IMG/VR virus record: IMGVR_UViG_2740892429_000002
Coordinates: 1 to 33,887 of that record
Origin: a virus
Taxonomy: Duplodnaviria > Heunggongvirae > Uroviricota > Caudoviricetes
DNA: 33,887 bases
Direction: 5' to 3' (one strand)
Shown in pieces: positions 265 to 12,963 of the stretch. Position numbers and translations under genes: made by a program. The notes under the pieces were generated by a model. That model worked only from the letters and a program-made list of their open reading frames with translations. It was not told where the DNA came from and ran no database searches. The first letter of the stretch is position 1. Each line of letters starts with the position of its first letter.

Positions 265-837
265 ATGTTTTGCGAAGAAAAAGTAGCTCAAATGGCTGCA
301 TACCTACTTCTTAAGCGAGGTGGGCGCATGGCATATCTGAAACTGATGAAGCTGCTCTATCTGTCTAACCGCAAGTCGATTTTGAAGCATGGCAGGATGA
401 TCGGCGAAGATAGCCTTTACTCTATGAAATTTGGACCAGTCATGTCGAATACGCTGAACTTGATTCGTGGTAAGGCTGAAGGCATTGGTGACTACTGGTA
501 CAACTTGATAGAGACGAACGGGCATGATGTGTTGTTGCGTTCAGATCCGAGGGAAATGGATGCAGACGAGGTCTTTGATGAGTTGAGCCGTGCAGATATC
601 CGGATTTTAGATGAAATCTATTCTCTGTATGGGCATATGAACCGATTTGATCTCGCAAACATGACGCATTTAGAAAGCGTTTGTCCAGAGTGGCACGATC
701 CCGGCTATTCCCGTAAGCCTATAGATCTGAAAGAAATGCTGATCAGTGAGGGTAAAAGCGAGGATGAGGCTAATCATATAATTGGCAAAATGGAAGAATC
801 TCAGAAACTTAAGGAATTTTCTTTGCAATTATCATGA
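265..837 (+). CDS. DUF4065/Panacea-domain protein (SocA/GepA-like), putative antitoxin
   Basis: 190-aa ORF with GAGG about 8 nt upstream of ATG. N-terminal motif AAYLLLKRGGRMAYLKLMKLLYLSNRKSILKHG...MKFGPVMSNTL matches the DUF4065 (COG3600) signature as I recall it. Stop overlaps the next start (ATGA). Confidence 0.65.
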   Translation: MFCEEKVAQMAAYLLLKRGGRMAYLKLMKLLYLSNRKSILKHGRMIGEDSLYSMKFGPVMSNTLNLIRGKAEGIGDYWYNLIETNGHDVLLRSDPREMDADEVFDELSRADIRILDEIYSLYGHMNRFDLANMTHLESVCPEWHDPGYSRKPIDLKEMLISEGKSEDEANHIIGKMEESQKLKEFSLQLS

Positions 838-1253
838 CGGATTATCAGCCATACAGGAAAGGAACTGTGCTTGCCCCAACAGGGCCATGCAATCATCTTC
901 ATGTGATTTGTAATGATCCTGTTTATTACCCCGTTAACGATTGTTATTGTGTTTTAGTTGTTAATATTTCTAGTATCAAGGATGGTGTCCCCCACGATCC
1001 GTCTTGCGTCTTGAATTCTGGTGATCATCGCTTTATCAAGCATCCAAGTTATGTTGTTTACGCTGAAGCTATAATTTGGCGAGTGGATAACATGGTTAGA
1101 AAGCAGCGATCGGGTGAGATTTCTGTTCATGATGATATGCCAGAAGCTACATTCAATAGAATTCTGGACGGTTTTGATATATCTGATGAAGTTACGCCAA
1201 AGAACCTTAAATTTAAAAATAAATATTGCGTATCATCTATTGATGATGAGTAA
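834..1253 (+). CDS. hypothetical protein, translationally coupled partner of the Panacea-domain gene (putative toxin/effector)
   Basis: 139-aa ORF whose ATG overlaps the upstream stop by 4 nt (ATGA) with no SD of its own. No family recognised; Cys/His-rich N-terminal half (GPCNHLHVICND...CYCVLVV). Confidence 0.5.
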   Translation: MTDYQPYRKGTVLAPTGPCNHLHVICNDPVYYPVNDCYCVLVVNISSIKDGVPHDPSCVLNSGDHRFIKHPSYVVYAEAIIWRVDNMVRKQRSGEISVHDDMPEATFNRILDGFDISDEVTPKNLKFKNKYCVSSIDDE

Positions 1254-2407: not shown

Positions 2408-3219
2408 TTCACCTCTTGTGATGGTTTTGCTGCAAAATACTCGATACCTTTATCCCAGATAGATTTTATGGTCGACCACGTGACTGGCACTTTAATTTCA
2501 ATACGTCCGCTCCCGTCACAGGTATCGCAATCATCATCGCCAAAGCATTCCAGGCAGCTTATAAACGTAGTTTCTGAAAATTCACCGGATAGCACCCCCT
2601 TAGCGCCGTTCTCGGCTGTTAGTCTCTTCGGCACCATAACCCAACCATCCGGAGTTACCGGAGAGTTGCCAGACAGTGCGTTCTGCAATCGTTCCAGCTT
2701 AACGTATTCCTGAACCCTGTTTCCGTCGCACGCCTGAAGCCATTGCACAGCCTTTTGCGCATCAGTGTGAAAGGCACAAGTGCGACCGTCATCAAATTGC
2801 ATTTCGTAGAGGTCAGCAACCTGTTTAAACTGCGTTTGTGGCAACTTGTAAGCCCGGCTTGCAGGTACGGCACTATAGAGCATGGCAGCGCGGCAGGCAT
2901 TCCAGCCTGTAGCGTATGCAGCCGCTTTGCTGCTGCCTTCAACTGGCGCATCCTGCCAATACATTTCTTCCGGCACTACCGGCGCTGGAGGGACAGTGTA
3001 AAGCTGGTGCGTTCCATCAGGCAGCGAGTGACCTACATACTCACCGAACCCGTCAACACACATGCTCCCATCTTCAATAATGCATGACGCTACTGGCTCC
3101 GCTTCCAGCGATGCCAGAGCAATTTCATAAGCCCGGCGCTCAATATTGTCTCGAACGTCCAGGCTGCCTATGCGTTCTTTGATTTCTTTAATCATTTCTT
3201 TGTCGGTTAAAGTTGTCAT
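2404..3219 (-). CDS. hypothetical prophage protein with Cys-rich C-terminal region
   Basis: 271-aa ORF, GAGGA RBS 7 nt upstream, coupled to neighbours; C-terminal CLECFGDDDCDTCDGSG cluster suggests metal binding. Confidence 0.6.
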   Translation of the reverse strand: MTTLTDKEMIKEIKERIGSLDVRDNIERRAYEIALASLEAEPVASCIIEDGSMCVDGFGEYVGHSLPDGTHQLYTVPPAPVVPEEMYWQDAPVEGSSKAAAYATGWNACRAAMLYSAVPASRAYKLPQTQFKQVADLYEMQFDDGRTCAFHTDAQKAVQWLQACDGNRVQEYVKLERLQNALSGNSPVTPDGWVMVPKRLTAENGAKGVLSGEFSETTFISCLECFGDDDCDTCDGSGRIEIKVPVTWSTIKSIWDKGIEYFAAKPSQEVK

Positions 3220-3222
3220 GTG

Positions 3223-3510
3223 TTAGTCCTCATCCACTTCAACGCCATCTTTCAGCGTGATGCCGTGCCAATCATCAGCCCAACTGGTTAGCCCTGGCGC
3301 ATCAATGCTAGGCATATAAACGCTTGCAGTGTGGTAGCCCTTATCGTTATCAATGCTGGCAACGTGCTCGCCGTTGTATGCGCTCAGCGTGTCCAGGACG
3401 CTATAAAACTTTCCTCCGGCTGCCCTGAAATCCTTTACAGCCTTCACAAGGCGATTCCACGCTTTTTCCTGTTCTGGCGTCAGGTCGATTAATTCCTGCA
3501 AAGTTGCCAT
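3223..3510 (-). CDS. hypothetical protein (95 aa)
   Basis: Start moved to the Met at MATLQELIDL, which has GGAGAG upstream and sits 1 nt after the upstream gene's TGA. Confidence 0.5.
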   Translation of the reverse strand: MATLQELIDLTPEQEKAWNRLVKAVKDFRAAGGKFYSVLDTLSAYNGEHVASIDNDKGYHTASVYMPSIDAPGLTSWADDWHGITLKDGVEVDED

Positions 3511-3511
3511 A

Positions 3512-4297
3512 TCACTCTCCTTTGATGCGAATGCCAGCAAGCCAGTTTCTTATGCCGATATATTCAGCGTTCCTGAAACCGCTTTTTACATATACAAATG
3601 GCAAGCGAAGATTGTGACCATTGGCTGCCAGGTAGTCTTTACAACCCTGTTCGGTGAAACAGCAGGTAACGAATTCATCAATATCTTTCACAGCAACGCG
3701 CCGCCATTTTTCTGGTGGCTCTCGAAAGTTTTCATGAAGTAGTTCGAGACGACGACTTTGGCGTTTATTGGCTTCATTGCCATCTTCATCAACCCAGACA
3801 ATCCGGTCATAGTCATAATCAGCATCAACAACGATTTCGCGCTTTTGATACACACAAAACATAGGGTCTGACGTTATATGATTGTCCTGTGTTCGAATAT
3901 TTTCACCGATGATGCCAAACGAATCTGGTGCAGATTTTGTCTGCAACTCTGCTATGCGCTTACTTCCATCCGCGATTACTCCCTCGTAATACACACGCTG
4001 CTCGTTGAGTTTTGATTTTGTCTCCTCAAGCTCAACTCTCAGCTTCCCTACCGTTAGCGCAATATCCTCGTTCTCCTGGTCGCGGAGTTTGATGTATTGC
4101 TGTTTTTCGTCCAGCTCATCCAACAGCCCGGCGATAATGTCCACTTCCCGATGACGGATTTCTCGCTTAAACGCCGCTAAAGCTGCATCACAATCCTGTT
4201 CAGCGTTTGGACTGTCTGGCTTTTCCTGATACCACGCCAGAGTCGATTGATAGTTTTGTGCTGCCTTACGCAACGCCTGATAGTCAATCTCGCTCAC
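3512..4297 (-). CDS. hypothetical protein with coiled-coil N-terminal half (262 aa)
   Basis: The track ORF (3512..4645) has an implausible Arg-rich N-terminus. A GTG start preceded by AAAGGAGG lies inside it (VSEIDYQALRKAA...) and overlaps the stop of the upstream 82-aa gene. Confidence 0.55.
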   Translation of the reverse strand: MSEIDYQALRKAAQNYQSTLAWYQEKPDSPNAEQDCDAALAAFKREIRHREVDIIAGLLDELDEKQQYIKLRDQENEDIALTVGKLRVELEETKSKLNEQRVYYEGVIADGSKRIAELQTKSAPDSFGIIGENIRTQDNHITSDPMFCVYQKREIVVDADYDYDRIVWVDEDGNEANKRQSRRLELLHENFREPPEKWRRVAVKDIDEFVTCCFTEQGCKDYLAANGHNLRLPFVYVKSGFRNAEYIGIRNWLAGIRIKGE

Positions 4298-4532
4298 TGG
4301 TGCCTCCTTTACGGATCTGCGCTGCGATGCACGAAAAAAAAGACTCTCGCGTATGACAGTTAAGAGCTGGTGCGAACGCCGCGTTAAGAACGGCGGCATC
4401 ACAGCCGTCATCAATATAGAGCGCAATTTTTTTCTCCAGGCGCGCTTTGGCTTCCTGCAACTGCATACCCCGGCACGCACGCGGGATATACTCAGCAATT
4501 TGAGCGATAGATTTTTCGTTCTGTTTAAACAT
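4284..4532 (-). CDS. hypothetical small protein (82 aa)
   Basis: ATG overlaps the stop of the upstream 67-aa gene, and its own stop overlaps the downstream GTG start. Confidence 0.5.
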   Translation of the reverse strand: MFKQNEKSIAQIAEYIPRACRGMQLQEAKARLEKKIALYIDDGCDAAVLNAAFAPALNCHTRESFFSCIAAQIRKGGTSERD

Positions 4533-4728
4533 GCTTCACCTCGATAGGCTTGATGGTATCGATCAGCAGTCGGCGGCGAGTATTTTCTGCAAAGTGGCGG
4601 CGTCCGGTTTCTTTGTGGTAAAACTCGTTTTTTCCGACGACCCACATCCGCTTTGTCTGGTGCAGTTTTTTTACCTGCGGACCGTCTCGGGTGATAACAA
4701 TTCCTGTATGAGTTTTTATCACGCTCAT
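4525..4728 (-). CDS. hypothetical small protein (67 aa)
   Basis: ORF in the coupled early-left operon; 4-nt overlap with the upstream gene end. Confidence 0.45.
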   Translation of the reverse strand: MSVIKTHTGIVITRDGPQVKKLHQTKRMWVVGKNEFYHKETGRRHFAENTRRRLLIDTIKPIEVKHV

Positions 4729-5087
4729 TTTTTATTCTCCGGTGCTTTCGGCATTACTGCCCAGTGAGTGATATTGACGTTTTCAAGGTCCCCGACCTGA
4801 AATGTCCACTGCCATTCTCCGGTTTCTTTTTGTCCCCAGGTGTACCAGAGAGAACGCCAGCCAATTAGCCAGCCTTCTCCGTTAGCATCAAATAACAGAA
4901 CACTTTCATTTGCTGGCGGCAGTTCAGCTGACACTGGTATTATTTTGTTTTCCAGTGCCGCACATTTAGCTTCAAGCGCATCGAATTTACGTACCAGGTA
5001 CTCAGCATTTGTTTCATTCACTTTCAGATCTCGTGGTACACATTTCCCGCGAAGAAACCCTTCCATTTCGAAAACATTCATGCGCAT
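4725..5087 (-). CDS. hypothetical early-left protein (120 aa), YfdS-like by size and position
   Basis: ORF overlapping the upstream HD-domain gene by 10 nt. Size and order match the CPS-53 yfdP-Q-R-S block (recollection only). Confidence 0.5.
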   Translation of the reverse strand: MRMNVFEMEGFLRGKCVPRDLKVNETNAEYLVRKFDALEAKCAALENKIIPVSAELPPANESVLLFDANGEGWLIGWRSLWYTWGQKETGEWQWTFQVGDLENVNITHWAVMPKAPENKK

Positions 5088-5614
5088 GTGCGTAACTCCG
5101 ATAACTCGTTAAAGCGCTCCATAAACATCCCGTAGGCATGGCTCGGAGCCAGTGGAATAACTTTGAACATTTCTGTTGCCGGGATACCTTCCAGTACTGG
5201 CCAGAAAGAGCCATCATCAAGCCCGAGATCGCGGCGTTCGGTTGCCAGCATGATGAGATCGGCATATTTCACAGGCGTGCTCATAACCGGGGGTAACCCG
5301 TATTTCTCACGGATTACGGCGTCTATTTTTTCTTCCATCCGTTTATAGTCAGGAAGAAGGCGTTTCAGTGGAGCGGGAATGTCCTGGCAATACGCTTCTG
5401 TTGCATCATGCATTAACGCTTCAAAAGCAAATTCCTGCGGCACCAGCTGGCTGCAAAGCACCGCATGCTGGGCGACACTGTAGAAGTGTGAAAGATGTCC
5501 TGCAAAGCGACAGATATTTGAAAGGGAAACCGCGATATCGTTAATCACGATGTCGTCTTTATTTATCTTGTCATAATAAAAATGCTTCCCGGAAAAAGTT
5601 TTAATAAATGACAT
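5078..5614 (-). CDS. HD-domain phosphohydrolase (YfdR / 5'-deoxynucleotidase-like)
   Basis: Start set at MSFIKTF (GTGGAG RBS). Motifs ICRFAGH and HDATEAYCQDIP fit the HD metal-binding pattern. Confidence 0.7.
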   Translation of the reverse strand: MSFIKTFSGKHFYYDKINKDDIVINDIAVSLSNICRFAGHLSHFYSVAQHAVLCSQLVPQEFAFEALMHDATEAYCQDIPAPLKRLLPDYKRMEEKIDAVIREKYGLPPVMSTPVKYADLIMLATERRDLGLDDGSFWPVLEGIPATEMFKVIPLAPSHAYGMFMERFNELSELRTCA

Positions 5615-5742
5615 TTCGTTCTCCACTTTATATGCGCTGCACCGCGCTGAATTCGGGTAAAAGGAATCCCGCACCATCCGGCGATTATTGAGTTAATTAC
5701 GTTTCCATAAATGCCCCCGCAGGGGCATTTGCAGTAATGAAA

Positions 5743-6567
5743 TCAGGCGGTGAAAGTACCAATAAAGGTTTCTACTTTGCTGTCTTTGAATTTCTCAACA
5801 AGCAGATCACGAAATTCGTTAGCCATTTCTTCCTGCACTGCTTCCAGCTGAATAATGCGCAGAACCAGTACAGGACGATCGCCAGTGATAATGCTGAGGC
5901 GTAATTTAAATGGACGTTCTTTCAGACCTTCAAACGGAACGCATTTAAATTCAAATGCCACTGGCATAATATCTTTGGTTTTCGCTTCGACAGACTCCAT
6001 CAGGGAGCGTTTGCCGCTGAAGTCATTATCTTCAAAATCAGCGGTCTGGTTTGCTTCAATCGTGATTTTACGGACAGCCGCAGCCGCTTTTGTTGCCTGA
6101 ATAGCGTCACCATTAGCATCAAAGCCCACAAGGTAGTCGGCCCAGTCTTCAATCCATTCTGCCAGTGACTTCTGGGAATGACGCTCGCCGTTAACAGACA
6201 ACAGAGCAGAGAACGGTGCTGTCTTTTTCAGTTTGAGAGTGGCGGTGTTATCTGCGTGACCTGGTTCATCAATAGTACCCAGGTTAAGCACACTGACGGC
6301 TCGCATATTATCGGCATCGATAAAGCAGCGGGTGCCTTCATCTGCAAGATCTTTAGAATAACGGGTAAAGTCATCGATGCTGGCAGTGGAAAGCGCACCA
6401 CGGAAACGGAAGCGATTTAAATTAAATTTTTCCAGATCATGAATGCGGAAATTCTCAGGCAATGCCACAGCATCGGCACCAATCTTACTGATAATTTCAT
6501 TAACACCCTGAGCAGAAATAAGAGCATGGATTTGATTAATTGCGGTTGCGTCTAAGTTCTGAGACAT
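5743..6567 (-). CDS. DUF2303 / YfdQ-like protein
   Basis: 274 aa, GAGGA RBS. The N-terminus [11 protein letters not shown] and the size match my recollection of CPS-53 YfdQ. Confidence 0.6.
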
Positions 6568-6632
6568 AATAAGTCCTCACTATATAAAGATATTCAGTGA
6601 TGAGATAAATAATCAGTTAATTAAGAACGATA

Positions 6633-6995
6633 TTAATGACCTGCTGCGCGGAGTTTTCCGTCAGGTTCACCGGCAAGAGTCAGTAATTGTCCCTGGTCTT
6701 CCTGCAGAATAGTCAGGCGACCACCGCGATTGACATACATCGGCGTTTCGGTGGTGTCTTCTTCAGAAATTTTCCCGCGGTTAGTCGGGCGAACATATGA
6801 AAGTTTGTGTTTGATTTTCACACGGTTCTCATCAAACGGTTCGATTTCCAGGTTGAGCGAGACCTTACCTTTGGTTTTCGTGTTCATCACACCGGAAGCG
6901 ACTTCACTGAGAACAGCGCCGATTTTGGTTTCAAATACGCCGCCGTCCAGCTCCCCGATAAATGCCTGCACATCAGTACTGCGTTCGCTAGCCAT
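6633..6995 (-). CDS. hypothetical protein (120 aa), first gene of the early-left operon (YfdP-like)
   Basis: The track ORF extends into the leader. The Met at MASERSTDV has GAGGAG 7 nt upstream and gives 120 aa. Confidence 0.55.
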   Translation of the reverse strand: MASERSTDVQAFIGELDGGVFETKIGAVLSEVASGVMNTKTKGKVSLNLEIEPFDENRVKIKHKLSYVRPTNRGKISEEDTTETPMYVNRGGRLTILQEDQGQLLTLAGEPDGKLRAAGH

Positions 6996-7717: not shown

Positions 7718-8410
7718 TTAATTGTGTCGCTTAAGGGTTTGTGACTGACTGATTAAGACCTTTCCAAAGACCATAAACCGGTGTTCGTTTTCGCTGGTAA
7801 TTCCCCATTCGCGGTAAATCTGATTATCAGAAATTACCAGCAGTTTATCAGGTATCATTTGCAGTCGTTTGACGTAAATTTTATCATCAAAACCAAATAC
7901 ATATATACCATCCCCATCAAACTGATTGATACTGATATCAACGAAGATGAGATCTCCTGGCTCAATGGTTGGACACATACTGTCCCCACGAACGTTGATA
8001 ACTTTAATGTGATTTGCTGGTCGTCCACCAAACATCGATACAGCATTATCAGTTCTGTATTCAATGGCATGAATCACATCAATGACATCACCGCCCTGGA
8101 TAAGGCCATTTCCCGCACTGGCACTGACATCCAGCATTTCAATACGGAATACATCCTTCACCTGCGCAACATCCTCACTAATACTGTTTTTACATACAGT
8201 ATTACTTTTGAGGTCTGAGGTAAAGAGATCAGCAATATCAACACCTAAGCTCCTGGCAATATTACTCAGGGCTTGTTCAGTGAATTGTTTCTGCTTACCT
8301 GTTTCGAGGCGCGAGATATTCGCCGCATCCACTCCTATTGCTTCAGCGAGATCGGCGATTTTCATGTTCTTCGCCTGGCGAAGTTGTCTGACTCGATTTC
8401 CTATGTTCAT
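7718..8410 (-). CDS. cI: CI-like prophage repressor (HTH_XRE plus S24 LexA-type peptidase)
   Basis: 230 aa; N-terminal HTH (IADLAEAIGVDAANISRLETG), C-terminal GDSMCPTI serine motif and KR dyad. Divergent from cro across an operator-rich intergenic region. Confidence 0.9.
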   Translation of the reverse strand: MNIGNRVRQLRQAKNMKIADLAEAIGVDAANISRLETGKQKQFTEQALSNIARSLGVDIADLFTSDLKSNTVCKNSISEDVAQVKDVFRIEMLDVSASAGNGLIQGGDVIDVIHAIEYRTDNAVSMFGGRPANHIKVINVRGDSMCPTIEPGDLIFVDISINQFDGDGIYVFGFDDKIYVKRLQMIPDKLLVISDNQIYREWGITSENEHRFMVFGKVLISQSQTLKRHN

Positions 8411-8768: not shown

Positions 8769-9312
8769 GCATCATTGGAAAGTGGAAAAACAACCTGAAT
8801 GGTACGTGAAAGCTGTCAGAAAAACTATCGCGGCATTGCCTGGGGGTTACGCTGAAGCTGCTGACTGGCTGGATGTAACAGAGAACGCTTTATTCAACCG
8901 CCTTCGTGCAGATGGCGATCAGATTTTCCCGCTGGGATGGGCAATGGTTTTACAGCGCGCGGCTGGCACTCACTACATTGCGGATGCTGTCGCACAGTCT
9001 GCTGGTGGGGTGTTCGTATCGCTTCCTGAAATTGAGGAAGTAGAGAACGCCGATATAAACCAGCGCCTGCTGGAAGTCATCGAACAGATCGGGAATTACT
9101 CAAAGCAGATTCGTTCGGCAATCGAAGATGGGGTCGTGGAGCCACACGAGCAGACAGCAATTAATGATGAGTTGTATCTGTCAATTTCGAAGCTCCAGGA
9201 GCATGCAGCACTGGTCTACAAAATCTTCTGCGCTCCAGAAAAGAGTGACGCCCGCGAGTGTGCAGCTCCGGGCGTCGTGGCGTTTTGTGTCTGTGGAGAA
9301 ACTAACGCATGA
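8761..9312 (+). CDS. CII-position regulatory protein (CII/YdaT-like)
   Basis: 183 aa, GTG start after AGGAGG. The position after cro suggests a lysogeny-establishment regulator; family assignment is uncertain. Confidence 0.45.
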   Translation: MGKHHWKVEKQPEWYVKAVRKTIAALPGGYAEAADWLDVTENALFNRLRADGDQIFPLGWAMVLQRAAGTHYIADAVAQSAGGVFVSLPEIEEVENADINQRLLEVIEQIGNYSKQIRSAIEDGVVEPHEQTAINDELYLSISKLQEHAALVYKIFCAPEKSDARECAAPGVVAFCVCGETNA

Positions 9313-9722
9313 ACAGTTTAACGGCAAATAACCGTTTGTCGCAACAGCTGGTGGTCAGTGTCGCTGAACACCTGTTGTTACGGCATGAATGCAGATTACC
9401 AAATCACTTGGCTGTAAGTAACCACAGAGAACTTTACCTGACTGTGGGGGGCGAGTTGTGCAGGAACTTAACCGCTGGTTTCGTGACGGAAGAGGGCTTT
9501 ATGTCCATGTTATTCGTTGGGAGCCAGAAACACAGCGCGTTATCTATCTTCGCAAAGACTACCCGCATGAGTGCTTTAGTCCTTTGTGGAAATTCAGGCG
9601 TGATTTTGTTGAGTGTGAAGGACCACCAGCACATTGATTCTGCCATTCCGGGACGTTACACTGTTCAGGCACCTTATAAAGCGGGTGCCGGGCGTGGAAA
9701 CTCGGAATTCACCAAAGCGCAC

Positions 9723-9746
9723 AACCGCGCTCTTGCGGTTTTTTTG
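9723..9746 (+). terminator. intrinsic terminator in the early-right operon
   Basis: AACCGC-GCTCTT-GCGGTT followed by TTTTTTT. Confidence 0.5.
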
Positions 9747-9914
9747 TGTAATGAGCAGCATTACGCCCAAATTATGGTGGGGCGTGCAGGGCCAACTTCG
9801 GTTGGGCCGGGTTCTTTGGTGACCGGTATTTCCACCCCTGTACGTCTCACCACCAATAAGGTCGTGGAAAGCCTTGGTGGTGAGTTATTAAAAATCACCA
9901 AAGAGGCTGCCATC

Positions 9915-10460
9915 ATGGCTACGATCCCAACCCTCACTCAACCTGAAATTGCCATCGTTGATGGTCAGGCTGTTACTTCATCCCTGGCTGTTGCCAACTT
10001 CTTCTCCAAACGTCATGACGATGTACTGAAAAAGATCCGCACGCTTGAATGCTCTGCATCATTCACTTCCCGCAATTTTTCGGCGAGTGATTACACCGAT
10101 TGCACAGGCCGCAAACTACCTTGCTATCAAATAACCCGCGACGGCTTTGCGTTTCTTGCTATGGGTTTCACGGGTAAACGTGCTGCCCAGTTCAAAGAGG
10201 CATACATCAATGCCTTTAACCAGATGGAGAAACAGCTTTCAAATCCCTCTGTACTGAGCGACGTTGCACATAACGCCAGCGTTCTCTATTCCTACATTTC
10301 ATCAATTCATCAGGTCTGGCTGCAGCAGCTTTATCCTATGTTGGCAAAAGCCGAATCTCCGCTGGCTGTTAGCTTGTATGACTATATTAATGATGCTTCG
10401 GCACTGGCCTGCCTCATAAATTTGTCGCTGAACCCTTCAGAGGTAAGGGGGCGCAAATGA
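9915..10460 (+). CDS. Rha-family phage regulatory protein
   Basis: Internal ATG (AAGAGG upstream) of the long track ORF. The N-terminal motif TSSLAVANFFSKRHDDVLKKIRTL is the Rha signature. Confidence 0.75.
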   Translation: MATIPTLTQPEIAIVDGQAVTSSLAVANFFSKRHDDVLKKIRTLECSASFTSRNFSASDYTDCTGRKLPCYQITRDGFAFLAMGFTGKRAAQFKEAYINAFNQMEKQLSNPSVLSDVAHNASVLYSYISSIHQVWLQQLYPMLAKAESPLAVSLYDYINDASALACLINLSLNPSEVRGRK

Positions 10461-10681
10461 TCCGGAATATTTTCAAACGGTTTACCAATCAGACTTTCCG
10501 TTGTCCTCGTCCGGGTCAGTGGTACACCACACCTGCAGGGCATGTTCTACGTGTTAGCCTGGTTGACCGTGAATGTCAGAAGGTGATTTGTGAACCGCTG
10601 GGCCGTAGTTACCGCGTCAGTATGCCGCTTATAGCCTTTCGCTCCGGAAAAAACATGAAGCATCTCGGAGGTGCTGCATGA
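10457..10681 (+). CDS. hypothetical small protein (74 aa)
   Basis: ATGA-coupled to Rha upstream and to the initiator gene downstream. Confidence 0.45.
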   Translation: MIRNIFKRFTNQTFRCPRPGQWYTTPAGHVLRVSLVDRECQKVICEPLGRSYRVSMPLIAFRSGKNMKHLGGAA

Positions 10682-11496
10682 GTATGGAGCTGATGGTTAA
10701 AGCGATGAAAATTCGAGTGGGTAATCCATTGCGAAAACTGGTTCTGATCAAGCTGGCTGATAATGCCAGCGATCAGGGGGAGTGCTGGCCCAGCTACCAG
10801 CATATTGCTGACCAGTGCGAGATTAGTAAACGTTCTGTGATGAATCATATTGCGGCCCTTTGTGAGTCCGGGCTGGTAAAAAAAGTCACTCGGAAAGGTG
10901 AAAAAGGTAACTCAAGTAATATCTATCTCCTTCATCTGGATGGTGCAGGAGATTCACTAGGGGGTAGTGCAAATAATTCACTATCTGGTGCAGCAAATTC
11001 ACCAGGTAGTGCAGGAGTTGCACCAGGGGGTAGTGCAGGAGATTCACCCAGAACCAGTCACTCTTTTGAACCAGTCAAAGAACCAGTCAATGAACCAATA
11101 GCTGTTGGTGCATCAGTTGATGAGTCCGTGCGAGTTCGTTCAAACCGACCGGAATACTCTCCGGAGTTTGAGCAGGCATGGCTGGCATATCCCAAACGTG
11201 CTGGTGGCAATTCAAAATCTGCAGCCTTCAAAGCCTGGAAAGCCCGTTTGAATGAGGGAGTAAACCCCGAAACCATGCTGGAAGGTGTGAAACGCTACGC
11301 GGGCTGGGTATCTGCGATGGGTAACAGCGGCACACAATTTGTGAAACAGGCTGTCACGTTCTTTGGTCCGGATCGTCATTTCGAAGAATCCTGGGAAGTT
11401 CCTGCGGTATCTGCAGCCAGACGCGAGGACCCGTACTTCAAAGCCAGTTACGACAACGTGGACTACAGCCAGATCCCGGCAGGATTCAGGGGGTGA
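10678..11496 (+). CDS. replication initiator (O-like) with N-terminal HTH and low-complexity linker
   Basis: 272 aa, GGAGGTG RBS. N-terminal wHTH (LADNASDQGECWPSYQHIADQCEISKRSVMNHIAAL); Gly/Ser/Ala linker encoded by DNA iterons; conserved C-terminal domain. Confidence 0.65.
   Translation: MSMELMVKAMKIRVGNPLRKLVLIKLADNASDQGECWPSYQHIADQCEISKRSVMNHIAALCESGLVKKVTRKGEKGNSSNIYLLHLDGAGDSLGGSANNSLSGAANSPGSAGVAPGGSAGDSPRTSHSFEPVKEPVNEPIAVGASVDESVRVRSNRPEYSPEFEQAWLAYPKRAGGNSKSAAFKAWKARLNEGVNPETMLEGVKRYAGWVSAMGNSGTQFVKQAVTFFGPDRHFEESWEVPAVSAARREDPYFKASYDNVDYSQIPAGFRG
10943..11089. repeat. iteron cluster (candidate replication origin) inside the initiator gene
   Basis: GTGCAGGAGATTCAC twice (about 10943 and 11033), GGTAGTGCA three times, and GAACCAGTCA three times in tandem (11051, 11068, 11080). 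Confidence 0.55.
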
Positions 11497-11498
11497 TT

Positions 11499-11987
11499 AT
11501 GAGTCTTTTGAATGAAGTTAAGAAATTCATTGAAGCCCATCCGGGGTGTACTTCCGGAGACATTGCGGATGCTTTTGCAGGTTACTCACGACAGCGCGTT
11601 CTGCAGTCAGCAAGCAAGTTACGTCAGAGTGGGCGTGTGGCTCACCGTTGTGAAGGAGATACACGCAGACATTTCCCGCGCCTGACTGAGAGAGCGCAGG
11701 AGCCGGAACCACAACCAGTTCGTGAAACCAGACCTGTGCGCAATTTCTATGTCGGCACTAACGATCCCCGGGTGATTTTGTGCCTGACCCGCCAGGCTGA
11801 AGAACTGGAGTCTAGGGGCTTATACCGTCGTGCTGCAACGGTGTGGATGGCGGCATTCCGTGAAAGCCACTCCCAGCCAGAACGAAACAATTTTCTGGCG
11901 CGTCGTGAGCAGTGCTTACAGAAAAGCAGCAAGCGCGCAGCATCGGGTGAAGAGTGGTATCTGTCAGGGAATTACGTGGGGGCTTAA
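11499..11987 (+). CDS. PerC-family transcriptional regulator-like protein
   Basis: ATG after GGGGG. C-terminal AEELESRGLYRRAATVWMAAF...RREQCL matches the PerC/Pch pattern. Confidence 0.55.
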   Translation: MSLLNEVKKFIEAHPGCTSGDIADAFAGYSRQRVLQSASKLRQSGRVAHRCEGDTRRHFPRLTERAQEPEPQPVRETRPVRNFYVGTNDPRVILCLTRQAEELESRGLYRRAATVWMAAFRESHSQPERNNFLARREQCLQKSSKRAASGEEWYLSGNYVGA

Positions 11988-12640
11988 TGAGTAATAAATA
12001 TTGTCAGGCACTGGTGGAACTGCGGAACAAACCAGCCCATGAACTGAAGGAAGTGGGCGATCAGTGGCGCACGCCGGACAACATTTTCTGGGGAATTAAC
12101 ACTCTGTTTGGCCCGTTTGTTCTGGATCTGTTTACTGACGGTGATAACGCCAAATGTGCCGCGTATTACACGGCGGAAGATAACGCGCTGGCGCATGACT
12201 GGTCAGAACGTCTTGCGGAGCTTAAAGGTGCTGCCTTTGGTAATCCCCCATACAGCCGCGCCAGTCAGCATGAGGGGCAATACATCACCGGCATGCGTTA
12301 CATCATGAAACATGCCAGTGCCATGCGTGATAAGGGCGGGCGCTATGTTTTCCTGATCAAAGCGGCCACCAGCGAAGTGTGGTGGCCGGAAGATGCAGAC
12401 CATATTGCTTTTATTCGCGGGCGTATTGGTTTTGAACTGCCTGCCTGGTTTATCCCGAAAGACGAGAAGCAGGTGCCGACAGGCGCTTTCTTCGCTGGTG
12501 CTATTGCTGTTTTCGATAAGACCTGGAAGGGACCGGCAATCAGCTACATCGGGCGCGATGAACTTGAGGCATGTGGTGAGGCGTTTCTGGCGCAGGTTCG
12601 CCAGCAGGCGGAAAAACTGGTCAGGGAGATGGCGGCATGA
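11987..12640 (+). CDS. phage Dam-type DNA N6-adenine methyltransferase
   Basis: Start at MSNKYCQ (overlaps the upstream TAA, TAATG). Catalytic FGNPPYS motif. Confidence 0.8.
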   Translation: MSNKYCQALVELRNKPAHELKEVGDQWRTPDNIFWGINTLFGPFVLDLFTDGDNAKCAAYYTAEDNALAHDWSERLAELKGAAFGNPPYSRASQHEGQYITGMRYIMKHASAMRDKGGRYVFLIKAATSEVWWPEDADHIAFIRGRIGFELPAWFIPKDEKQVPTGAFFAGAIAVFDKTWKGPAISYIGRDELEACGEAFLAQVRQQAEKLVREMAA

Positions 12641-12963
12641 CGACGTTAACTCAATGCCAGCAGCAGGTGCTGGATATGCTGATTTCTTACCAGAAAGAAC
12701 GTGGCTTCCCGCCAACTAATCAGGAGGTGGCAACCATGCTGGGATACCGTTCAGTGAATGCAGCGGTGGAGCATCTTCGCGCACTGGAGAAAAAAGGCGT
12801 CATCACGATAAAGCGTGGCGTGGCACGGGGGATAACGCTTCATACCGCGGTGAAGGACGACGACAGCGAGGCAGCCGGGATTATCCGCGCACTGCTTGCC
12901 GGTGAGGAAAACGCCAGACTGCGTGCAGCCCACTGGTTACATGAGAGGGGCCTGAAAGTATGA
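12637..12963 (+). CDS. LexA N-terminal DNA-binding-domain-only protein
   Basis: 108 aa. MTTLTQCQQQVLDMLISYQKERGFPPTNQEVATMLGYRSVNAAVEHLRALEKKGVI parallels the LexA wHTH; there is no S24 peptidase domain. Confidence 0.7.
   Translation: MTTLTQCQQQVLDMLISYQKERGFPPTNQEVATMLGYRSVNAAVEHLRALEKKGVITIKRGVARGITLHTAVKDDDSEAAGIIRALLAGEENARLRAAHWLHERGLKV

Follow-up and report, generated by a model that had tools for sequence, protein, structure and literature searches.

A putative replication origin inside the initiator gene of an SfV/mEp460-type lambdoid prophage, and a DnaT-like tail that may borrow the host helicase loader

How can a lambdoid phage with a single initiator gene and no helicase-loader gene start its own replication? 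This question is raised by the DNA analyzed here (the window, a whole stretch of 33,887 nucleotides), a 33.9-kb lambdoid prophage of the SfV/mEp460/CPS-53 type. The textbook model of lambdoid replication is the O-P-DnaB relay, and a viable variant lacking the loader has, as the literature acknowledges, no explanation so far. We propose, with a probability of about 0.6, that the origin lies within the coding sequence of the protein that initiates from it, and that a DnaT-like tail on this initiator recruits the host DnaB-DnaC, in which case no phage loader would be needed.

The window was 98.6% identical to the viable phage mEp460, and its initiator gene displayed 98.6% nucleotide identity to mEp460 gp43, annotated as 'replication protein'. 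Records deposited as complete phage genomes and carrying the same module included mEp460, SfV, ST64B, Stx2c phages and PhiR phages. About one in two complete E. coli genomes carries the module (initiator gene matches in 2718 of 5426, 897 of them near full length), and it is also present in Stx2-, Cdt- and serotype-converting phages. It would therefore control the induced copy number of medically relevant prophages.

Initiator gene and iteron array

The features in and directly upstream of the initiator gene were as follows.

10457..10681, + strand: small upstream ORF of 74 aa, its stop overlapping the initiator start (ATGA); PHROG 1153, unknown function
10678..11496, + strand: initiator gene (ORF), 272 aa, with the putative origin inside; PHROG 270 'replication initiation protein', E 1.7e-88
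10678..10935, + strand: N-terminal winged-helix DNA-binding domain, aa 1-86; Pfam HTH_36 at aa 17-67, E 1.8e-11
10943..11047, no strand: five iterons GTGMA-N5-TKCAC, each a 15-bp dyad, starting at 10943, 10967, 10988, 11009 and 11033
11048..11101, no strand: common element AGAAYCAGTCAC-TCTTTT-(GAAYCAGTCAWW)x2 plus a degenerate copy; top strand A-rich
11140..11412, + strand: C-terminal helical domain, aa ~155-245; large family without a Pfam model
11455..11493, + strand: DnaT-like C-terminal tail NVDYSQIPAGFRG-COOH; 8 of 9 residues equal to the last 9 of E. coli DnaT

The initiator was arranged as a winged helix, a disordered linker encoded by the putative origin DNA, and a helical C-domain. 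AlphaFold2 predicted the N-domain with a pLDDT of about 90 and the topology H-H-H-H-E-E, and predicted residues 91-156 as disordered. The DnaD_N profile (PF21984) scored 24.3 bits on the head of the protein, under its 27-bit cut-off, and Foldseek hits of the full model were confined to generic winged helices, DnaD-N 2v79 among them. The Pfam profile Phage_rep_O (PF04492) did not match the initiator even at E<=10, and a PDB search with the initiator sequence and family profile gave only spurious low-complexity matches. The initial annotation had called the gene O-like. This holds for the HTH_36 N-domain and for the architecture, but neither for Phage_rep_O nor for the C-domain, which is unrelated to that of lambda O. 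The 74-aa upstream ORF had no Pfam match and is annotated at the same position in mEp460 and cdtI.

The iterons were spaced at 24, 21, 21 and 24 bp, about two helical turns, and corresponded to aa 89-124, between the winged helix and the C-domain. Five copies were observed where 0.18 were expected from whole-window shuffles, and none of 100 shuffles reached five. No copy was present outside the array on either strand of the window. Three sets of direct repeats had been described at this place, GTGCAGGAGATTCAC (at 10943 and 11033), GGTAGTGCA (10963, 11005 and 11029) and GAACCAGTCA (11051, 11068 and 11080). All of them were found, as fragments of a larger regular array, and the statement that they encode a Gly/Ser linker agrees with a Gly/Ser/Ala/Pro-rich stretch at aa 89-141.

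Phage mEp460 contained five iteron copies in its entire 44.5-kb genome, all within gp43. Iteron number and spacing were identical in 74 of 80 copies of the module from IMG/VR, which are near-identical and serve copy-number statistics, not diversity. More distant relatives from Phytobacter, Kosakonia and Leclercia (56-65% amino acid identity) each carried five copies, no more and no fewer, at aa 89-120, and their loci contained none outside this stretch. The iterons were kept in these relatives despite differing encoded peptides, and some copies were inverted. Alanine was encoded by GCA in 32 of 36 cases within the iteron block versus 24 of 90 outside (p 1e-10). In relatives with the recognition helix CEIGRSTVKSHVRAL, the iteron was replaced at the same position by GTGGGGCAGGAGCTGAC (class B), which was read in two frames with the ORFs intact. 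A third type of recognition helix was accompanied by a third iteron, so that three helix types corresponded to three iteron types at one position. Selection thus acts on the repeat DNA and not on the linker peptide, since the codons are fixed, the sites persist across differing peptides and the iteron is swapped with the recognition helix.

A different explanation is that the repeats are an expansion-prone, low-complexity Gly/Ser linker without a DNA function, the origin being elsewhere or the prophage decaying after loss of its loader. Near-identical proteins had between 1 and 9 repeats, a variation seen in slippage-prone coding repeats. Some close relatives had only one or two iterons, and either few sites suffice or these prophages are defective. 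A frameshift was located inside the repeats of the Erwinia locus L013, and K-12 CPS-53 retains only a remnant of such a gene. A plain linker, however, conflicts with the dyad symmetry of the sites, their codon fixity, their persistence under differing peptides and in inverted orientation, the reading of the class-B iteron in two frames, the co-variation with the recognition helix and the presence of exactly five sites in 74 of 80 copies. A decaying prophage conflicts with the occurrence of the same module in plaque-forming phages. We consider this explanation highly improbable.

The proposal of origin iterons within the initiator gene, on the model of ori-lambda, is in agreement with their dyad symmetry, interdomain location, conservation as DNA and co-variation with the recognition helix. 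That the repeats are iterons of an origin nested in the initiator gene is strongly supported by this comparison, from which we infer that they are bound by the initiator and act as an origin. No DnaA box was detected near the putative origin within one mismatch, the nearest being at 9292. A literature search on the iterons of replication genes of the SfV/ST64B type retrieved no paper.

Next to the iterons, GAAYCAGTCA was present in three copies (11051-11089) versus 0.13 expected. This common element was conserved across the three iteron specificity classes, with its codons fixed (GAA 21/21, GTC 14/14). The region 11050-11109 had a GC content of 0.42 and an AT skew of +0.20 to +0.24, and its AT-richness was mild. 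We regard the common element as a candidate zone for unwinding or loading. A change of frame in the common element of Erwinia L013 was discarded as evidence, the gene being frameshifted. Together, the iterons and the common element offer a candidate minimal origin, of use for plasmid vectors and in prophage incompatibility typing.

Neighbouring genes and the loader position

Pfam scans of 29 window ORFs detected no helicase, loader or primase family between 265 and 21220, and none is among the 65 annotated genes of mEp460. Searches with two DnaC-like queries (phmmer) found no DnaC-like gene within 4 kb on either side of the initiator. The profile scan of neighbouring ORFs and the mEp460 gene list thus bear out the earlier remark that no helicase-loader gene is evident. 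The idea that a loader lies elsewhere was not supported, as none was found in the window or in complete viable phage genomes.

The next genes 3' of the initiator were PerC-like, Dam, LexA-like, RusA, KilA-N, DUF968 and Q. The first of these occupies the place where a loader gene usually stands:

11499..11987, + strand: PerC-family gene (yfdN homolog) in the usual loader position; Pfam PerC E 6.7e-9

This match confirms that the next gene is PerC-like and not P- or DnaC-like. Its product shared 96% identity with E. coli K-12 YfdN, and mEp460_4F5 carries the yfdN of the window.

A loader need not be an ATPase, as is known from lambda P. The PerC-family protein might accordingly be a non-ATPase loader like lambda P, and the tail of the initiator would then dock onto the YfdN homolog and not onto DnaC. 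The position of the gene, whose start abuts the initiator stop, would fit this. Among 47 diverse loci, yfdN was found only behind two loader-less HTH_36 initiators, those of the window and of a Leclercia locus (L008). The tail DYSQIPAGFRG and yfdN also travel together, even behind an unrelated C-domain of lambda-O type. On the other hand, phage cdtI has no yfdN and carries dam directly after the initiator, yet the C-domain and tail of its initiator are 100% identical to those of the window; cdtI was reportedly published as an inducible prophage. The yfdN homolog of Stx2a_WGPS2 is interrupted by an IS element, and the Evi-type loader-less lineage (47 loci) has DUF977 downstream and no PerC. Moreover, PerC proteins are transcriptional activators, and a PerC-type loader leaves the identity of the tail with DnaT unexplained. 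We therefore regard a loader function of this protein as distinctly unlikely.

The phage lacks a Rec module. Its Chi sites are very numerous (16 on the + strand, 4 on the - strand; about 0.5 expected per strand). In Zheng et al. (2025; PMC12315714), 34 of 314 lambdoid phages are described as having an O homolog only. The absence of a loader from such modules is stated there independently, with a mechanism 'not yet understood', and the window corresponds to the loader-less lambdoid replication module as defined in that paper.

C-terminal domain, DnaT-like tail and loader type

Clustered at 50% identity, the C-domain family comprised 4493 clusters with a cut-off of E<=1e-3 and 2122 with E<=1e-10, and the domain was nearly always at the C-terminal end of proteins of 240-340 aa. 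It had no Pfam match even at E<=10. AlphaFold2 predicted three to four helices with pLDDT values of 62-82, and fold searches with the C-domain model yielded no significant match, which is a weak negative because the pLDDT of the model was about 66. The DnaT profile PF17948 did not match the initiator at E<=10, and a PDB profile search returned no DnaT chain. Alignment (hhalign) of a 140-sequence C-domain profile with DnaT, as a single sequence or a 105-sequence profile, gave a probability of 3.7-6.5%, and did not reproduce a DnaT_C assignment. Therefore, the helical domain is not claimed as a homolog of the three-helix, ssDNA-binding C-terminal domain of DnaT (84-153). A link of the C-domain to the 'DnaT_C' of DopC through a Microbulbifer locus (L046) was also set aside as unproven, as this locus is an ordinary prophage (NinB/NinG).

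The likeness to DnaT was confined to the tail. In BLASTP of the initiator against DnaT (sequence checked against PDB 9zbt_D), only the last nine residues aligned; along D-Y-S-Q-I-P-A-G-F-R-G the identity was 9/11 if Asp is counted. The DnaT tail motif [LIV]S[EQ]PDxxIPxGFRG was invariant in 105 DnaT orthologs. The tail of the window agreed with it except for the upstream SxP, and is a more diverged version without the SxPD of DnaT. Related initiators reached 12/14 (VSEPDTEIPPGFRG versus VSEPDSQIPPGFRG in DnaT). The tail recurred on other initiator scaffolds: K-12 YfdO and phage 569R4 displayed the same tail on an unrelated lambda-O-type C-domain, with no loader. All named clusters with a GFRG tail were from Enterobacterales. 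A literature search for the motif PPGFRG gave nothing relevant.

Tail type was compared with loader type in about 280 related loci. DnaT-like tails occurred only with a loader of the E. coli DnaC type or with none, while DCNW and NLNF tails were almost always accompanied by a different loader type. Loaders after GFRG tails were 45-51% identical to E. coli DnaC over their full length. Those after DCNW/NLNF tails were 30-33% identical, and their N-terminal stretch did not align with DnaC residues 1 to ~45. This second loader type was found with DCNW/NLNF tails in 10/10 and 79/80 loci, and a GFRG tail with an EcDnaC-type loader in 8 genome or phage loci and 30 IMG/VR loci, counts that are not independent events, as the loci are related prophages. 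At least 130 loci had a GFRG tail without a loader (80 window-type and 47 Evi-type loci, plus those of the window itself, of Evi and one from Shigella flexneri); the 80 window-type loci were taken as loader-less from the annotated neighbours of mEp460 and neighbour identity. Linkage exists as well between the window-type tail and the yfdN module downstream, and a recombination boundary could account for part of the association.

These patterns suggest that the initiator borrows the host DnaC loader by means of its DnaT-like tail. The suggestion in the initial annotation that the initiator may recruit host DnaB/DnaC directly fits both the tail and its pairing with loader type. In the mechanism we propose, initiator dimers on the five iterons would form an O-some-like complex, which would destabilize the adjoining common element. 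The C-terminal part of the initiator would then recruit the host DnaB-DnaC complex directly, through the last ~11 residues, a copy of the conserved tail of the host restart protein DnaT. With an initiator adapted to host DnaC, the phage would need no loader of its own.

The tail might instead contact PriA, PriB or PriC and not DnaC, so that replication would follow the host PriA-PriB-DnaT restart route. The initiator would then be a site-specific surrogate of DnaT, or replication would be mainly recombination-dependent with host restart proteins. In favour of this, DnaT has the same tail, and the contacts mapped for DnaT are PriA (through its C-terminal domain) and PriB (through its linker) only (PMC13377028). 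The lack of a Rec module and the very high Chi content also match the host-recombination-dependent LLS class (PMC12315714). However, a peptide binding PriA or PriB should serve any loader, whereas tail type tracks loader type almost perfectly, and regular iterons co-varying with the DNA-binding domain argue for origin-specific initiation. The cited DnaT papers describe no role for the tail of DnaT. We consider the restart route rather unlikely.

A broader reading, to which we give slightly less than even odds, is that the tail [LIVM]SxP[DE]xx[IV]PxGFRG (~14 residues) is a portable docking peptide for E. coli-type DnaC or DnaB6-DnaC6, found both in DnaT and in phage initiators with several unrelated scaffolds. 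About a tenth of lambdoid phages are loader-less, and these would display it at the origin and act as sequence-specific mimics of DnaT. A phage initiator-loader pair may have been the ancestor of the host dnaT-dnaC operon. The gene order is alike, with dnaT directly upstream of dnaC and the phage initiator followed by the loader. No direct contact between DnaT and DnaC has ever been shown (PMC5778457; PMC11087952), and DnaT's N-terminal domain has been suggested as the recruiter of DnaB/DnaC (Ducos et al., 2026; PMC13377028). The pairing of tail and loader provides a molecular handle, a peptide of 11-14 residues. Since the same peptide is invariant in DnaT, the phage data point to a specific element of the host restart machinery. 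If the docking-peptide reading is true, it would answer how single-gene lambdoid replication modules work and also how the PriA-PriB-DnaT preprimosome recruits DnaB-DnaC.

Relation to known replication systems

The module resembles ori-lambda/O/P in that the putative origin lies in the initiator gene, in the DNA encoding the linker that joins the DNA-binding domain to the C-terminal one. Several dyad iterons about two helical turns apart are followed by an A/T-biased element in both, and iteron specificity co-varies with the N-terminal domain, as in lambda O. HTH_36 has been assigned to lambda O by HHpred (Brezellec et al., 2017; PMC5509034). In contrast to ori-lambda, the five iterons differ in sequence and the adjoining element is only mildly AT-rich. 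The C-domain is unrelated to the lambda O domain that contacts P, and the initiator gene is followed by neither P nor a DnaC-like or DnaB-like gene. The proteins K-12 YfdO and phage 569R4 O differ from the initiator of the window in having a C-domain of lambda-O type.

DnaT is presumed to act as the adaptor by which DnaB-DnaC reaches a marked site. The initiator shares with E. coli DnaT the extreme C-terminal peptide ...SQIPxGFRG, and in the host as in the loader-carrying phages the gene is directly upstream of an EcDnaC-type loader gene. Unlike DnaT, the initiator has an N-domain predicted to be a sequence-specific winged helix, and it would recognize duplex iterons, whereas DnaT acts at a PriA/PriB-marked fork.

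DopC, a domesticated O-like protein of Cellvibrionales and Oceanospirillales which combines an HTH_36 N-domain with a 'DnaT_C' motif (HHpred >95% to 2ru8_A; PMC5509034), is the only described protein with an O-like head and a DnaT-like end. In contrast to the initiator of the window, which has iterons and no P-like neighbour, DopC is chromosomal, has no iterons and always occurs with the P-like DopE.

Relatives were also found in modules of an initiator and a DnaC-like loader, with C-domains 45-75% identical to that of the window: Shigella phage 75/02 Stx gp15-gp16, Burkholderia phage DC1 gp19-gp20, and prophages of Klebsiella, Citrobacter and Enterobacter. Two loci (L006 and L007) also shared the N-domain and iteron class of the window. 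These modules differ in having an AAA+ loader directly downstream, and the members most similar to the window in N-domain and iterons have the ending ...DYGxSDCNW, without a DnaT-like tail.

Phage LLS and the 34 of 314 Enterobacterales lambdoids grouped with it resemble the window in having a single O-like gene and neither helicase nor loader, and LLS likewise lacks a Rec module and is rich in Chi sites. That study (Zheng, Casjens, Smith et al., Genome Res 2025) differs in dealing with gene content, and the passages searched mention no iterons, C-domain family or DnaT-like tail. According to the same paper (PMC12315714), the repressor of LLS is closest to that of mEp460_4F5.

Prophage context and the initiator protein

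The window is an SfV/mEp460/CPS-53-type lambdoid prophage, in which the genes around the initiator gene are arranged as follows:

7718-8410, cI-like gene of the immunity region, followed by cro-like and cII-like genes
9309-10460 (+), 383-aa ORF of an Ash/Rha regulator, followed by a 74-aa ORF
10678-11496 (+), initiator gene
downstream of 11496, genes for PerC-like (yfdN), Dam, LexA-like, RusA, KilA-N, DUF968/HNH and Q proteins, lysis and head/tail genes

Phage mEp460 is 98.6% identical to the window over bases 10400-12000, and this stretch was also found in SfV, ST64B, cdtI, many Stx2c/Stx2a phages and PhiR phages. Of 5426 complete E. coli genomes, 2718 have a match to the initiator gene, with a coverage of at least 80% in 897. 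A decayed copy of the neighbourhood, yfdO-yfdN-yfdM together with yfdPQRST, is located in the K-12 cryptic prophage CPS-53. Its products are 96-100% identical to those of the window except YfdO, which is alike in the tail only, and YfdT (81% over the first 42 residues). The module is functional in viable phages, as Ayreon, which carries it, was isolated in free form on a K-12 derivative.

In the AlphaFold2 model, aa 1-86 form a winged helix predicted with confidence (pLDDT about 90), followed by a disordered linker (aa 91-156), a C-domain of three to four helices (aa about 160-225, pLDDT 62-82) and a disordered tail. Pfam assigned HTH_36 to the protein (E 1.8e-11), with DnaD_N below threshold, and gave no Phage_rep_O, DnaT or DnaB_2 match at E<=10. 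Thus the label "O-like" of the initial annotation holds for the architecture and the N-terminal domain but not for membership of the lambda O family, from which the different C-domain also separates it. The C-domain belongs to a family without a Pfam model, comprising at least 4493 clusters (50% identity) at E<=1e-3, and almost always forms the C-terminal part of 240-340-aa proteins. Its conserved core is F-E-x-x-W-x-x-Y-P-x-R...TFFGP...F...W (window 11140-11412; compared proteins P0193-P0335), and fold searches with this domain gave no assignment. Within the family at least four modes of helicase supply were observed, namely an EcDnaC-type loader, a second DnaC-like type, a Toprim-DnaB primase-helicase (Burkholderiales loci L017 and L032) and nothing. 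The recurrent classes of the extreme C-terminus were GFRG, DCNW/NLNF and xPxWA[RK][GD].

The iteron array and the adjacent element

The repeats quoted in the initial annotation are all present, as parts of one regular array. Five copies of the 15-bp dyad GTGMA-N5-TKCAC start at 10943, 10967, 10988, 11009 and 11033, spaced by 24/21/21/24 bp or about two helical turns, and the fourth copy, GTGCAGGAGTTGCAC, has perfect inverted arms of 5 bp. The dyad occurs on neither strand of the 33.9-kb window outside the array. Dinucleotide-preserving shuffles gave a mean of 0.18 copies, and none of 100 shuffles reached five. In mEp460, five iterons were found genome-wide, all within gp43, and among 80 IMG/VR copies of the module, 74 show the same count of five and the same spacing. 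Among close relatives (proteins P0001-P0120; 242-302 aa, with nearly identical N- and C-domains) the number varies from 1 to 9, with five by far the commonest. Variants with one or two iterons are present on many contigs, and cdtI (locus L050, 4249-4419) has eight through duplication of a three-unit block. Such variation in copy number is the usual behaviour of iteron arrays.

Five lines of comparative evidence show that selection acts on the DNA of the repeats rather than on the linker peptide. Firstly, in the window and three relatives, Ala codons were GCA in 32/36 cases within the iteron block versus 24/90 in the rest of these genes (Fisher p 1e-10). Secondly, initiators from Phytobacter, Kosakonia and Leclercia prophages, only 56-65% identical to that of the window, each have exactly five iterons at the same codons (aa 89-120) with a spacing of 21/21/21/24, and no further iteron was found in the 7-9 kb of these loci, yet the encoded peptides vary (GAGDS, GANRS, GAAVS, GANAA, GESPA). 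Thirdly, two iterons are inverted in Leclercia; GTGAATCTCCTGCAC, one of the two, matches the reverse complement of GTGCAGGAGATTCAC of the window exactly, which is sensible only for a symmetric DNA site. Fourthly, relatives with the recognition helix CEIGRSTVKSHVRAL instead of CEISKRSVMNHIAAL carry another repeat, GTGGGGCAGGAGCTGAC, at the same place, and a third helix type, CECSKSAVREHIAAL, goes with a third repeat type. The repeat GTGGGGCAGGAGCTGAC is read in two frames of one intact ORF, giving GGAGAD and VGQELT (4293-4393 in both loci L009 and L010), which is an unusually clean case of DNA-level repeats overriding protein-level periodicity. The fifth line is the constancy of the array, given above for mEp460 and the IMG/VR copies. 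The reading of the repeats as origin iterons within the initiator gene thus gains comparative support, and the putative origin is of an ordinary kind in a new family. The alternatives of a mere linker and of a defective prophage were excluded by this evidence together with the presence of the module in viable phages.

In Erwinia rhapontici (locus L013, 4001-4861) the initiator gene is frameshifted in the iteron array, so that frame 0 encodes the N-domain and frame 2 the C-domain. This is either a prophage gene inactivated by slippage or an assembly error in the repeats.

Directly 3' of the iterons, GAACCAGTCA occurs three times (11051, 11068 and 11080; 0.13 expected), with a degenerate fourth copy at 11092. 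The stretch CCAGAAYCAGTCAC-TCTTTT-GAAYCAGTCAWW-GAAYCAGTCAWW is kept across all three iteron specificity classes. Codon usage is again biased: Glu codons were GAA in 21/21 cases versus 56/111 outside (p 4e-6), and Val codons GTC in 14/14 versus 20/106 (p 2e-9). The element occupies the position of the A/T-rich unwinding region of lambda; its top strand is A-rich, and with a GC content of 0.42 it is not strongly AT-rich. Its independence of DNA-binding specificity and its lambda-like position suggest a common unwinding or loading zone.

Absence of a loader and the DnaT-like tail

That no helicase-loader gene accompanies the initiator was borne out. Scans for helicase, loader and primase families gave no match in the ORFs scanned between 265 and 21220, none of the 65 genes of mEp460 encodes such a protein, and phmmer searches with two phage DnaC-like proteins found nothing in the window. 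The suggestion of a loader elsewhere found no candidate among these ORFs or the mEp460 genes. The arrangement agrees with the survey by Zheng, Casjens, Smith and colleagues, where LLS and 34 of 314 Enterobacterales lambdoid phages have an O homolog alone; according to that survey, none of these phages has been studied and their replication "is not yet understood" (PMC12315714). The loader-less arrangement is an acknowledged open question.

The initiator ends in ...NVDYSQIPAGFRG and E. coli DnaT (sequence verified against PDB 9zbt_D) in ...SEPDSQIPPGFRG. Eight of the last nine residues are common to both, each motif lying at the extreme C-terminus, and no significant alignment was found beyond the tail. 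Across 105 DnaT orthologs of 71-100% identity there is essentially no variation in the tail [LIV]S[EQ]PDxxIPxGFRG. Forms up to 12/14 identical to that of DnaT (VSEPDTEIPPGFRG) end phage initiators with the window C-domain and different N-domains, including gp15 of Shigella phage 75/02 Stx, phage Evi and prophages of Citrobacter, Kluyvera, Raoultella and Pluralibacter. An unrelated, lambda-O-type C-domain carries the exact window tail as well, in K-12 YfdO and in O of phage vB_EcoS-569R4. YfdO (locus L291, 4879-5247), a remnant comprising the C-terminal part of a different initiator, is 38% identical to the C-terminus of lambda O and ends in DNVDYSQIPAGFRG. The 569R4 O (locus L292, 2428-3369) is the intact version, with its own iterons GTCAAAATCTGAC (5-6 copies, 15-bp spacing), and is followed by yfdN-dam-lexA-like-rusA without a loader. 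This recurrence on differing N-domains and an unrelated C-domain argues that the tail behaves as a portable module. All tail clusters with an organism given by the source were from Enterobacterales, and a literature search found no mention of the motif.

Tail type tracks loader type, as counted over loci that are related prophages and so are not independent events. The nearest relatives of the window outside E. coli have the same N-domain and iterons, end in ...DYGxSDCNW and have an AAA+ DnaC-like gene directly 3'. DCNW/NLNF tails went with this second loader type in 10/10 genome loci and 79/80 IMG/VR loci, the lone exception retaining a 146-aa loader fragment. This second type shares only 30-33% identity with E. 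coli DnaC, with no alignment between its N-terminal stretch and DnaC residues 1 to about 45. Loaders accompanying GFRG tails, where present (8 genome/phage and 30 IMG/VR loci), were always of the other type, with a full-length identity of 45-51% to E. coli DnaC. GFRG tails without a loader were found in 80 window-type and 47 Evi-type loci, the latter a second loader-less lineage, and in the window, Evi and a Shigella flexneri prophage. Among the loci compared, the loader-less state was confined to initiators with the DnaT-like tail and spanned at least three scaffolds. The host gene order, dnaT directly upstream of dnaC, mirrors that of initiator and loader in the phages. The simplest reading is that the tail would be a docking peptide for EcDnaC-type loaders, so that a phage with a GFRG-tailed initiator could do without a loader of its own and rely on the DnaC-DnaB complex of the host. 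The literature to date demonstrates no contact between DnaT and DnaC (PMC5778457, PMC11087952), and Ducos et al. 2026 favour the DnaT N-terminal domain as the recruiter (PMC13377028). The tail and its pairing with DnaC type are a new, testable lead, which also bears on the recruitment of DnaB-DnaC by the host preprimosome.

Alternatively, the PerC-family gene that occupies the loader position might encode a P-like, non-ATPase loader, since it co-occurs with two loader-less HTH_36 initiators in a diverse set and travels with the window-type tail. However, in cdtI, whose initiator has an identical C-domain and tail, dam directly follows the initiator gene and yfdN is missing; in one Stx2a phage yfdN is interrupted by an IS element; and the Evi-type lineage has DUF977 in its place.

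Chi sites and other prophage genes

Chi (GCTGGTGG) is strongly over-represented and strand-biased in the window, with 16 sites on the + strand, 4 on the - strand and about 0.5 expected per strand; one lies inside the initiator gene:

Chi (+): 1844, 9001, 9347, 11200, 13262, 14399, 14670, 16260, 16581, 17401, 17740, 19334, 20834, 21363, 21831, 24869
Chi (-): 9623, 12366, 14799, 17395

The left-operon ORFs showed no Exo/Bet-type Rec module. In both respects the phage resembles the LLS class, which relies on host recombination (PMC12315714). Both this lack and the Chi density fit a rival explanation in which the tail contacts PriA, PriB or PriC and replication proceeds via the restart pathway, but the tracking of tail and loader type is then left unexplained.

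In the 383-aa Ash/Rha ORF upstream of the replication genes, the Ash domain spans aa 117-213 and the Rha domain aa 223-308; the N-terminal ~100 residues match no family, and the start, which was called mechanically, may lie too far upstream. Among the nin-region genes, 12637-12963 (+) encodes a 108-aa protein that is a LexA DNA-binding domain alone, without the S24 peptidase domain, and is kept in mEp460, cdtI and 569R4.

The (-) strand ORFs at 3094-6995 include the following, 98-100% identical to their CPS-53 counterparts in K-12:

6636-6995 (-), yfdP
5746-6567 (-), yfdQ (DUF2303)
5081-5614 (-), yfdR
4737-5087 (-), yfdS

YfdR binds DnaA at Phe46 and competes with DnaB-DnaC for DnaA-oriC (PMC4776307). 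Speculatively, a YfdR-like block on DnaB delivery to oriC could free helicase for a phage borrowing DnaB-DnaC. The left end holds an ORF whose product has a SocA/Panacea antitoxin domain (265-837 (+), E 1.8e-18) and, overlapping it, a 139-aa ORF without a family (834-1253 (+)); the two may be a prophage-borne toxin-antitoxin or defence pair.
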